Below, one piece after another: positions 276-3,921 of a stretch of 14,996 bases of DNA. The position numbers and the translations under genes are program-made. The notes beneath the pieces were generated by a model. The model was given only the letters and a program-made list of their open reading frames with translations, searched no databases and was not told the DNA's origin. The number at the start of each line of letters is the position of its first letter. Position 1 is the stretch's first letter. The DNA is taken from the IMG/VR virus record IMGVR_UViG_2713896798_000009; one strand, written 5' to 3'. This stretch comes from a virus. Its lineage: Duplodnaviria; Heunggongvirae; Uroviricota; Caudoviricetes.

Positions 276-596
276 AGAAATATAAAGGCGGGTCATCTTT
301 CCAGGGGGAAGCGCACCAATTCATGAGGGGCGTTAATGTCGATATGGGGATCCCCACCTACCGGAATTTTTTTCCGGTTAAACGTTAATCAGGCTGGTGG
401 GCTTTACATACCCTTGATCACGGTAATGATGATTCAGGTGCGTACCTTTTCCCCAGTGGGGTAAAAGCTCCAACCGTAACGATGTTCGTTGTGGTTGCCT
501 TGATGGTCTGCGTGGTCATTATGACCATTCAGAATTTGAAGGGTGATGTTTCCGATCTCCTCAAATTGAGGTTGCCGGAAATATCAACGGGTTAGG

Positions 597-889
597 CCAG
601 AGTGCAAATTTGCACTCTGGAACAATTCCAACCAGTAATCAGCGCAATTTTGCGCTTTGCTTTAAGTTCAGCGAGTAACCGAAGGCGGAATTCCGCCCTC
701 GGTACTCACATATGAGAAACGATATTTCTTCCACCGATACCCTTTATTTGGGTATCGCGAGTAAGCCCCAAAATCTGGGTGTTACTCTTACTACCCAAAC
801 TACGGGTATTTTCCGTAATTTCATGGTCGAGTTGCAGATCTGCAACTCACCCACCAGCCAACGCAATTTTGCGCTTTGCTTTAAGTTCA
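597..889. repeat. Cluster of distinct palindromes plus a 28-bp direct repeat, lying between the last packaging gene and the left junction
   Basis: Perfect 24-bp palindrome 597-620 (ccagagtgcaaatttgcactctgg); near-perfect 24-bp palindrome 679-702; hairpin 735-757 (cgataccc/gggtatcg); perfect 20-bp palindrome 829-848 (gagttgcagatctgcaactc); 28-bp direct repeat cgcaattttgcgctttgctttaagttca at 643-670 and 862-889. Confidence 0.6.
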
Positions 890-894
890 ACCAG

Positions 895-1176
895 TTACCG
901 CCGTAACCGCTCCGGCTTCTTCCAGTGGTACGTAATTTTTGCTTTTTCCCTGTACGTCTGCACGCGGCGACGGTAGGCCAGCATTTCAAGAACGCGGATC
1001 CGTATGTTGCGCATATCCACATCATTAAGCTGGATACCATCACGGCGCATCACCTCAGCAACAACTCGCGCATAATTTTCGGCGGTCACGCTGTCCGGCT
1101 GCGTGGCCTGTTCGTCATGCTGCTGGCTGATTCCAGAGACGCGGCGGATTAATCGCAGTATTTCGGCTTCTGTCAT
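895..1176 (-). CDS. hypothetical protein (93 aa), last gene of the packaging operon
   Basis: ATG at 1176 with GAGGT RBS about 7 nt upstream; 13 nt downstream of the terL stop; no family recognised. Confidence 0.5.
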   Translation of the reverse strand: MTEAEILRLIRRVSGISQQHDEQATQPDSVTAENYARVVAEVMRRDGIQLNDVDMRNIRIRVLEMLAYRRRVQTYREKAKITYHWKKPERLRR

Positions 1177-3191: not shown

Positions 3192-3480
3192 GCTTATTTT
3201 TTCGCCAGATTATTTTTCAAAAAATTACCGTGCATAAAAATTTGGGGAGGCGGTCGGTTCTGGGCGGGGTCGGGTTCGTCCTGAAAACTCCCCCCACCCC
3301 GTCCGGCTGCCTCATCAGCGATTGCGGAAACATTCCATAACCTCGCGGTCACGGTCGTTTAATCGCGTCGCTGTGATGCGTTCTGCGCGTCCTGATGCTT
3401 TATCTTTATGCCCTGTTTCCTGTGCCTTCCATGCGTCACGCTGCCTTATAAGTCCACGGATAAGGCGGTTTTGTTCCCGC
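3192..3480. other. candidate cos / packaging-initiation region between the HNH and terS genes
   Basis: 289-bp non-coding gap in an otherwise tightly packed, overlapping operon; G-tract-rich segment about 3240-3310 (ggggaggcggtcgg...gggcggggtcggg...ccccccacccc); the HNH-cos-TerS-TerL arrangement is typical of HK97-like cos packaging. Confidence 0.3.
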
Positions 3481-3921
3481 TCATTCATCAGCGCCATACA
3501 TCCAGTTATTGCGGTTAGCGCCCCGTTCTTCCTCCTCACGGAATCCACCCGCAGCACGCTTGTTTTTTGTGGACGGATCAAGCCATTTCGTTTTCTGGTT
3601 ATGACACGCCTGGCACAATGGCTGATGATTCCACTCAGGCCAGAAGAGAACATCATTACCGCCATCGATTGGGATAATGTGATCCACCACCACGGCGGGC
3701 GTGTATATTCCTTTTTCCAGGCAATGCGCACATAACGGGTTTTTACTCAGATACATGGCGCGGTATTTCTCCCACTGCCTCGTATACCCTCGCTCCCTGC
3801 TGCTGCCTCTCCGGCTGTCCTGCTGCTGGCGTGCGCTGCGTCTGTGCTCCTCACACTTGCCGGACTTCACGCGCCTGTTGCAGCCTGGTTCTGTACATCG
3901 TCTTAATGGTTGCCACGGCAT
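3481..3921 (-). CDS. HNH endonuclease (terminase-associated)
   Basis: 146-aa ORF; Cys-rich N-terminus (CTEPGCNRRV...CEEH) and HNH core (VVVDHIIPI...GGND...N.QPLCQACHNQKT); ATG at 3921 shares one base with the upstream stop (TGATG). Confidence 0.85.
   Translation of the reverse strand: MPWQPLRRCTEPGCNRRVKSGKCEEHRRSARQQQDSRRGSSRERGYTRQWEKYRAMYLSKNPLCAHCLEKGIYTPAVVVDHIIPIDGGNDVLFWPEWNHQPLCQACHNQKTKWLDPSTKNKRAAGGFREEEERGANRNNWMYGADE

Follow-up and report, generated by a model that had tools for sequence, protein, structure and literature searches.

A palindrome-rich, apparently non-coding tail at the end of the late operon of capsid-forming satellites in Escherichia coli

Introduction

The stretch of DNA analysed here (IMG/VR virus record IMGVR_UViG_2713896798_000009, Caudoviricetes; 14,996 nucleotides (nt), referred to at its full length as the window) carries an island inserted in the Escherichia coli tqsA gene, and close to one end of this island a region of 300 bp (597-889) is crowded with palindromes and repeats. 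The locus raises the question of whether such a region, situated immediately beyond a packaging operon, acts through RNA hairpins, through protein-binding sites on the DNA, or not at all. The island is of the capsid-forming phage-inducible chromosomal island (cf-PICI) type, with all of its genes on the minus strand, and a 750-bp stretch without an annotated gene (145-894), here termed the tail, separates the last late-operon gene, which encodes a 93-amino acid (aa) protein, from the attachment site (att) junction and contains 597-889. Judged by its sequence in related satellites, the tail is a widespread, strongly conserved and apparently non-coding satellite module. Our tentative explanation is that it may represent a structured, non-coding 3′ end of the late operon (3′ untranslated region (3′UTR), terminator and insulator), combined with putative sites for the integration host factor (IHF).

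Palindromes and repeats beyond the last late gene

The following elements make up the region:

597-620, both strands: perfect 24-bp palindrome, CCAGAGTGCAAATTTGCACTCTGG, of which only the central 14 bp (GTGCAAATTTGCAC) recur elsewhere
678-703, minus strand: GC-rich near-palindrome of 26 bp, ACCGAAGGCGGAATTCCGCCCTCGGT, with one A/C mismatch (92% complementary)
735-757, both strands: hairpin with an 8-bp stem (CGATACCC/GGGTATCG) and a 7-nt loop
737-770/776-809, both strands: imperfect 34-nt inverted repeat (74% complementary), overlapping the hairpin at 735-757
829-848, both strands: perfect 20-bp palindrome without a loop, GAGTTGCAGATCTGCAACTC
643-670 and 862-889: exact 28-nt direct repeat, the copies 219 bp apart and each holding a (G/A)CGCAATTTTGCGC hairpin
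728-858: conserved core of approximately 130 nt, from CCACCGATACCC (730) to CAACTCACCCA (about 856), holding the hairpin at 735-757 and the palindrome at 829-848

The first-pass annotation had described four long palindromes and a direct repeat here, and the palindromes at 597-620 and 829-848, the hairpin at 735-757 and the 28-bp repeat are all found where it had placed them. The second of its 24-bp palindromes (678-703) is also present, but is imperfect through the one A/C mismatch, and the direct repeat, although exact, correctly spaced and with an inverted repeat in each copy, is part of a longer repeat of 53 nt at 83% identity (629-681 and 848-900). Hairpins are also found further to the left, at 559-571 and 361-377. 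Its placement of the cluster downstream of the packaging operon agrees with the gene map, in which TerS, TerL and the 93-aa protein are all encoded on the minus strand and end at 895. Its view that no convincing open reading frame (ORF) spans the region likewise stands, as frames are open on both strands but have unconserved starts and ends and no family matches.

Nine distinct perfect hairpins with arms of at least 8 occur in the 15-kb window, three of which, together with the near-perfect one at 678-703, fall inside these 300 bp, while first-order Markov random sequences contain a mean of 2.3 such hairpins per window; for arms of at least 10, seven are observed against 0.2 expected. The fold of 674-882 is more stable than that of dinucleotide shuffles on both the plus (z = -8.8) and minus strand (z = -8.3), and the 737-809 inverted repeat forms a long nested hairpin in the minus-strand fold (-90.6 kcal/mol).

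Distribution and conservation of the core

Matches to the whole region were identified by BLAST in 959 of 5,426 complete E. coli genomes, in the form of mosaic pieces, and the core alone is present in 709 (13%) of these genomes, mostly at 90-99% identity and in up to six places per genome. A further 86 core loci were obtained from two IMG/VR pattern scans. In approximately 90 of the 93 core-bearing loci, the stop codon of the 93-aa gene is followed after 39-530 nt by the core, always in one orientation relative to the gene. The core is better conserved (76-100% identity) than the protein encoded by this gene (62-100%), with values of, for example, 98.5% at the nucleotide level against 79.6% at the amino acid level.

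Alignment with four other loci showed that the core and the 93-aa gene are common to satellites integrated at tRNA-Ile beside mug, at clpS and at another tqsA, and to one located inside a prophage. The packaging genes of core-bearing satellites comprise three different sets, namely P27 TerS with TerL and HNH, a Nu1-size TerS with lambda-like capsid and decoration genes, and DUF1441 with a protease-capsid fusion, and the carriers span at least four integration sites and different integrases. The core and gene thus recur across related satellites. Conservation is uneven among the palindromes, however, with 829-848 found in every core locus, 678-703 in 62 of 87 (~71%), and the centre of 597-620 in only four of about 97. 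The segment 560-1180 has no blastn match among 50,697 phage records, and a scan of genome contigs with the protein profile recovered, beyond E. coli, only Shigella (gene and units, described below, without the core) and Pluralibacter (41% identity, without the tail). The module appears to be confined to satellites of E. coli and Shigella.

The 93-aa gene (895-1176, minus strand; phrog_1561) always accompanies the tail, and its stop codon, TTA at 895-897 (TAA on the minus strand), is overlapped by the tail of direct-repeat copy 2. The product is a basic, helical protein with no match in Pfam, NCBIfam or PDB, belonging only to a PHROG family of unknown function, and its AlphaFold2 model consists of three helices at low confidence (predicted local distance difference test, pLDDT: 65).

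A repeated unit with an IHF-type motif

Between the core and the 93-aa gene, relatives carry one to five copies of a unit of approximately 45 nt, in a single orientation, the last of which overlaps the stop codon of the gene. The unit is composed of a short hairpin with an A/T-rich loop, a spacer near TTTCCGAAAA and the motif TATCA(A/G)CNNGTTA, which matches the IHF consensus WATCARNNNNTTR exactly and has an A-rich tract immediately upstream. The window contains the following units:

559-596, plus strand: unit 1, with the hairpin CCTCAAATTGAGG (559-571), the spacer TTGCCGGAAA and the IHF match TATCAACGGGTTA (582-594)
629-681, plus strand: direct-repeat copy 1, a degenerate unit with the hairpin AGCGCAATTTTGCGCT (641-656), a T-rich tail, and AGTTCAGCGAGTAA replacing the IHF consensus
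848-900, plus strand: direct-repeat copy 2, the gene-proximal unit, with the hairpin ACGCAATTTTGCGC (861-874) and the tail AGTTCAACCAGTTA

The IHF-consensus match of unit 1 is exact and preceded by GGAAA, and a counterpart of this unit, 88% identical, directly follows the gene in a core-less satellite (locus L096). In both repeat copies the motif is degenerate (664-677 and 884-897), with AGTTCA instead of WATCAR. The direct repeat, regarded by the first-pass annotation as a feature on its own, is therefore better described as two degenerate copies of a repeated family of hairpin, spacer and IHF-consensus motif.

Across 77 kb of tails from 93 loci, plus-strand matches to the IHF consensus number 168 and minus-strand matches 21, where chance would give approximately 2-3 per strand, corresponding to a roughly 60-fold enrichment of the motif. 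A perfect hairpin of at least 5 bp ends 7-13 nt before the motif in 33 of 57 unique units, compared with 1.8 in shuffled controls. The hairpins, which lie at a fixed distance from the motif, have 11 different stems, including CCTCA/TGAGG, ACGCA/TGCGT, CAGCC/GGCTG, CCCCC/GGGGG, GTGCA/TGCAC and TCGCC/GGCGA, so that the stem sequence is free to vary while hairpin and motif are kept. The window as a whole contains five IHF-consensus matches (0.96 expected), with the others located at att, at the replication origin (ori) and in the regulatory region on the int side. Units are present in 1,311 of the 5,426 E. coli genomes, but in at most six places per genome and, in the contexts checked, always in satellites, and thus do not form a genome-wide repeat of the repetitive extragenic palindromic (REP) kind.

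The differences among the palindromes had been taken to argue against a single repeated binding site. The palindromes are indeed unrelated and hairpin-like, but an IHF-type motif shared between units recurs beside the hairpins. One shared protein site thus probably exists there, and from their sequence the motifs probably bind IHF on DNA.

Maintenance of the folded structures

Pairing was counted over 40 distinct variants from close E. coli relatives. For the four hairpins of the window, 88.5% of the cells are paired, as opposed to 27-45% when the partner is slid; ten pairs are changed on both sides, against 3.5 in shuffles (0/500 shuffles reach ten), and the covariation score is 0.103 against 0.065, values that stem from few independent covariation events, with helix 1 partly aligned to non-homologous flanks and positions 765-800 fixed by the search pattern. 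The covariance comparison across related islands that had been suggested alongside the first-pass annotation hence yielded stems that are maintained with some compensatory changes, and its unrelated palindromes behave as folded hairpins.

The hairpin at 735-757 (helix 3) is paired in 93.8% of cases, with its loop occurring in at least five forms (among them TTTATTT, CAAATTT and TGTATTT) and a compensated stem, GATCCCC/GGGGATC, in one lineage. The palindrome at 829-848 (helix 4) is 100% paired, its 8-bp stem being intact in relatives apart from one G-T pair in the L016 type, while its centre changes from AGATCT to AAATCT or AAATTT; the outer stem around it changes from TGGT/ACCA to TAGT/ACTA in a lineage of 79% identity. 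The unit hairpin that follows the core (helix 5) covaries, with five or more stem sequences among the relatives. This pattern of stems that are kept and loops or centres that drift fits better with folded single strands than with several sequence-specific dimer sites. As both strands fold identically at palindromes, the hairpins by themselves do not set the acting strand.

On its att side the core is bordered by three unrelated flanks, the commonest of which (type A) is the GC-rich palindrome at 678-703. This palindrome forms 11-13 pairs (11 in the L002 copy, eight of them GC) and, like 829-848 and 735-757, constitutes a stable GC-rich stem-loop. The L002 copy scores as intrinsic-terminator-like on the minus strand, with the tail TACTTATTGT, and a T-rich minus-strand tail (at least 5 T in the first 8 nt) stands behind the palindrome in 46 of the 62 carrier loci. 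Promoter scans returned nothing above chance.

Candidate identities that were rejected

Several established types of element were considered for the region. A cos site was rejected on the basis of L002, which has the same core but carries an exact copy of GGGCGGCGACCT, which we take to be lambda cosN, upstream of terS and not in the tail; no match to it within two mismatches occurs anywhere in the window. In L002 this sequence is located at ~4046 on the minus strand with the flanking CGGGGCGGCGACCTTGCGG, upstream of the Nu1-size terS of a satellite with capsid and decoration genes, and by its sequence a satellite of this type would package with lambda-like cohesive ends. For the HNH/P27 system of the window, cos would be expected between HNH and terS (3192-3497), by analogy with HK97-type phages and the discussion in the cf-PICI preprint (10.1101/2022.09.08.507074). 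This interval consists of a gap of ~120 bp and a 60-aa ORF.

An ori/crr element was rejected because nine exact TGTTCACC iterons, presumably those of the P4 alpha protein, lie on both strands at 9478-9698, just downstream of the primase gene, and none in 150-900. A 29-bp palindrome (GGTGAACAGTTCATAAATAACTGTTCACC, 9617-9645) and an IHF-consensus match (9649-9661) lie within this cluster, and 9478-9698 is very likely the replication origin of the satellite. An att arm was rejected since the arm-type repeats (212-233) and the att-proximal IHF site (155-167) are at least 350 bp to the left of the palindromes. Within the att-side junction (145-260), tqsA homology stops near 144, the IHF-consensus match at 155-167 is on the minus strand, and TGACTACACC occurs as direct repeats at 212-221 and 224-233, with three copies in L003; TTAACTACACC is found twice each in L004 and L096. 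The TGACTACACC/TTAACTACACC repeats are probably arm-type integrase sites.

Nothing in the window reached the gathering threshold of Rfam 15, with two chance-level matches (E = 0.35 and 1.4) in 100-1000, and no tRNA or tmRNA was found. A coding function, for the plus-strand ORF 712-906 (64 aa) or for minus-strand ORFs, was rejected since the start is unconserved, one flank type lacks an in-frame start and the C-terminus falls in a variable hairpin; substitutions are near-neutral by hand estimate, both strands are open, and core-spanning ORFs have no match in PHROG or NCBIfam. In L085, the Prokaryotic Genome Annotation Pipeline (PGAP) placed a minus-strand gene for a 52-aa hypothetical protein (WP_001364204.1; 1473-1631) over the core. 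The corresponding frame has no start codon in the window, and this gene is probably an over-call.

Mosaic structure of the tail

Two further elements lie in the att-proximal part of the tail:

361-377: hairpin CCGGAATTTTTTTCCGG, conserved in L003 and L085
443-499, plus strand: remnant of the type B left flank, including CCCCAGTGGGG, from a second, truncated core copy (L003 alignment, L008-type variants)

In L096, a core-less cf-PICI at clpS, the order is gene stop, unit, GTGCAAATTTGCAC and unit, homologous to 559-681 of the window, and by comparison 682-900 has the appearance of 219 bp that were inserted or duplicated, with the 53-nt repeat at the borders. Core copies occur in tandem, approximately 434 bp apart, in four loci (L012, L020, L037 and L057), the second copy carrying a type C att-side flank (ACCCGCAACC...CCAGTGATGCCACC), and internal units keep a few codons of the 3′ end of the gene.

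The core-less L096 (3952-3990) and L006 harbor another short cassette in place of the core, with four GTCAC repeats ~10-11 bp apart (TGTCACGGCGTGTCACTGGTTGTCACCCTCCGTCAC), an arrangement suggestive of a phased array of protein-binding sites. Within the core, a direct repeat GTA(T/G)TTTCC GTA(A/G)TTTC (GTAGTTTC) at 802-822 explains the recurrent 9-nt deletions of the L016 and L034 types as replication slippage. L005 (1653-2414) and L086 (1606-2367), which belong to the most divergent core lineage (76-79% identical), carry a gene for an abortive infection family protein directly next to the tail, on its att side. This suggests that the att-side end of the satellites is a slot for accessory and defence genes.

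Proposed role and alternative explanations

Under the tentative explanation that the tail is a structured 3′ end of the late operon with putative IHF sites, late minus-strand transcription would continue beyond the 93-aa gene (stop codon at 895-897) and through the units and core as far as the 703-678 hairpin, where it would end. The RNA hairpins could terminate transcription, impede 3′ exonucleases and provide insulation: in the excised circle they would stop late transcripts from crossing attP into int, which is on the same strand, and in the integrated state they would block antisense read-in from the interrupted tqsA. The core is conserved beyond what a plain terminator calls for and may act in cis as a 3′UTR RNA, or be processed and released as a small RNA, and the oriented IHF-type motifs may add a layer of DNA bending.

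A number of observations weigh against this explanation. The tail of the window's own 678-703 palindrome has only 3 T in 8, because a repeat copy has replaced the original tail, and the terminator-like calls in the window are on the plus strand only (641-656 and 792-808). With only 4-6 bp the unit hairpins are weak, and no U-tract follows them on the operon strand. The core is missing from satellites that keep the gene and units (L006 and L096), where it is consequently dispensable. The mismatch types are contradictory, with A683/C698 fitting the minus strand and C846T (L016 type) the plus strand, and the covariation derives from a small number of independent changes within a set of close E. 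coli relatives. A plain terminator would moreover need neither a core kept almost in full nor the motif that the units conserve outside their hairpins.

It is unlikely, though worth consideration, that the tail is instead a nucleoprotein array, in which the oriented IHF-type motifs, perhaps with the palindromes as dimer sites, would bend the DNA beside attP, possibly in concert with the 93-aa basic protein, and be used when the excised satellite recombines, is packaged or replicates. The exact WATCARNNNNTTR match at 582-594, the strict orientation and ~60-fold enrichment of the motif with its upstream A-rich tract, the remaining matches at customary locations of IHF sites (att, ori and the int-side regulatory region), the loop-less perfect palindromes (597-620 and 829-848) and the constant adjacency of the 93-aa gene would all accord with such an array. 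The 11 stems beside the motif and the drifting palindrome centres are, however, unlike a sequence-specific dimer site, and both repeat copies of the window lack the consensus (AGTTCA). The tail is furthermore 400-750 bp from the att core, beyond the usual arm sites and with the arm-type TGACTACACC repeats at 212-233, the cos and ori are elsewhere, and the model of the 93-aa protein is of low confidence. A cos/pac or ori/crr site for packaging or replication is highly improbable. Palindromes with an IHF site typify lambda cosB or P1 pac, and the position of the palindrome-rich tail and its IHF-type site near the terminase genes and the excised-circle junction would suit such a site, but three different terminase systems share the tail, the cosN of L002 lies upstream of terS with no near-match in the window, and iterons are found only at 9478-9698.

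We consider it quite unlikely that the core is an independent plus-strand gene convergent with the operon, giving either a small RNA that ends at 861-876 or a 64-aa protein (712-906), with a transcript antisense to the late operon end. Terminator-like hairpins with T-rich tails at 641-656 and 792-808, and a second repeat copy with the hairpin and tail of 641-656, are consistent with such a gene, as are a frame that is open through TDTLYLGI...ELQICNSP in nearly all of ~50 variants, three L016-type (79% identical) changes in 829-848 that are all synonymous, and eight of 16 differences between the common and L016 types at third codon positions (hand count). Yet the upstream flanks are of three unrelated types, type C being without an in-frame start, there is no Shine-Dalgarno sequence, and the C-terminus comes from the variable unit hairpin, the T tail of which is poor in most relatives. 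The ~10 amino acid against ~4 silent changes in L016 are roughly neutral (hand estimate), the GTAGTTTC direct repeat accounts for the 9-nt deletions, the minus strand is also open, with a PGAP ORF called there once, and neither PHROG or NCBIfam matches nor an above-chance promoter were found. It is similarly doubtful that the tail is a largely non-functional mosaic at the variable accessory end of the satellites, its repeats and palindromes being scars, recently spread horizontally, of repeated recombination and duplication events where the last gene ends. The variable unit number, gaps of 39-530 nt, the resemblance of 682-900 to a 219-bp insertion or duplication, the other cassettes in L006 and L096, the tandem cores ~434 bp apart in four loci, the truncated copy at 443-499, the gene-end codons in internal units and the abortive infection gene beside the tail in L005 and L086 all point in this direction. 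The core is, however, better conserved than the neighbouring protein gene, the hairpins are maintained through compensatory and loop-only changes, the orientation of the motif is strict, and the module persists across different integrases and packaging genes.

A further suggestion, speculative and on balance unlikely, is that the tail is a satellite module not previously described, in one of two forms. Either the core would be a shared regulatory RNA, 3′UTR-derived or antisense, with targets among the satellite's own late genes or int, the helper phage or the host, or the hairpin-plus-IHF units would be recombination boundaries, defined by their structure, at which short non-coding cassettes (core or GTCAC-repeat) are swapped at the late operon end.

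Gene content of the island

The 5′ part of tqsA, which encodes an autoinducer-2 (AI-2) transporter, occupies bases 1-144 of the window, with island sequence beyond. In addition to the 93-aa gene, the following were identified, from the annotation of the identical locus L001 and, where given, Pfam matches:

14996-13779, minus strand: integrase
11545-9713, minus strand: P4-alpha-type primase
minus strand: SSB, PerC-family regulator, major capsid, prohead protease, portal, head closure and connector proteins
3921-3481, minus strand: HNH endonuclease (also Pfam match)
3191-2835, minus strand: TerS, P27-family (also Pfam match)
2851-1190, minus strand: TerL

No tail or lysis genes are present in the island annotation. 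The published cf-PICI architecture comprises int, an alpA-type regulator, a primase, the satellite's own capsid, portal, protease and connectors, HNH, TerS and TerL, without tail or lysis genes, in ~10-15 kb (10.1101/2022.09.08.507074), and the assignment of the island to this type follows its gene content.

A second cluster of perfect palindromes is located between the integrase and the regulatory genes (13564-13761), and consists of AAAGGCATAAAATCTCGTTTTATGCCTTT (13564-13592), TCACGCTTTAAAGCGTGA (13597-13614) and CAGTATGCGCATACTG (13746-13761), with an IHF-consensus match at 13650-13662. These palindromes are probably the terminator and operator sites of the control region.

Significance and comparison with known systems

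Until now, studies of phage satellites (PICIs and cf-PICIs) have dealt with their proteins. The EcCICFT073 and EcCIEDL933 papers describe cos sites and packaging genes, and no description of the palindromic tail was found in the published satellite work examined, including 10.1101/2022.09.08.507074. Retained with 90-99% identity by 13% of complete E. coli genomes, and common to satellites whose packaging machines and integrases are unrelated, the core is a good candidate for an RNA or DNA element that acts in cis or in trans. Its possible roles include control of late transcription, insulation from the interrupted host gene, coupling to int across attP, and an IHF-dependent architecture. Even if it is only a stack of terminators, the tail marks, for annotation purposes, the end of the operon and a recombination-prone accessory junction.

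Among known systems, intrinsic terminators and structured 3′UTRs of phage or operon transcripts, some of which give rise to small RNAs, come closest to the tail in that GC-rich stem-loops directly follow the last gene of a long operon, the distal hairpin is terminator-like in most relatives, and stems are kept while loops drift. The tail differs from these in its several different hairpins, in a block of ~130 nt kept at nearly every base, and in the poor U-tract of the window. The sib element of lambda lies across att from int and acts in retroregulation, and in the excised form the tail is similarly placed across att from int; sib is, however, downstream of int, whereas the tail hairpins are upstream of it in the circle.

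The bacterial interspersed mosaic elements of type 1 (BIME-1), or repetitive IHF-binding palindromic (RIP) elements, also combine a short palindromic unit with an IHF-consensus site, in variable copy number, in transcribed intergenic or 3′ regions. The tail hairpins, by contrast, are only 13-15 nt long, strictly oriented to one gene and not dispersed. The REP hairpin is a longer, GC-rich imperfect palindrome, and no REP consensus was seen on reading the units, although no search for it was made.

Centromere arrays such as F sopC and P1 parS, the latter with an IHF site, follow the last partition gene. The tail is comparable in that units of ~45 nt with a small inverted repeat and an IHF-type site are found directly downstream of a gene for a small basic protein. 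In these arrays, however, the inverted repeat is constant, as a protein reads it, while 11 stem types are found here; the island has no ParA/ParB-like gene, and the 93-aa protein is without a recognisable DNA-binding fold.

The attC sites of integrons are likewise defined by structure and carry a short conserved end motif, with GTTAGGC at 590-596 fitting GTTRRRY, and the units flank interchangeable segments as attC sites do, with a 53-nt copy on each side of the core in the window. No inverse-core partner was seen by eye in the units, in which no search for one was made. The island differs in having no integron integrase, its sole annotated recombinase being the P4-type tyrosine integrase, and the tail in having far shorter hairpins, unit ends that mostly (GTTACCG, GTTAGCG) fall outside GTTRRRY, and no evidence of cassette excision.

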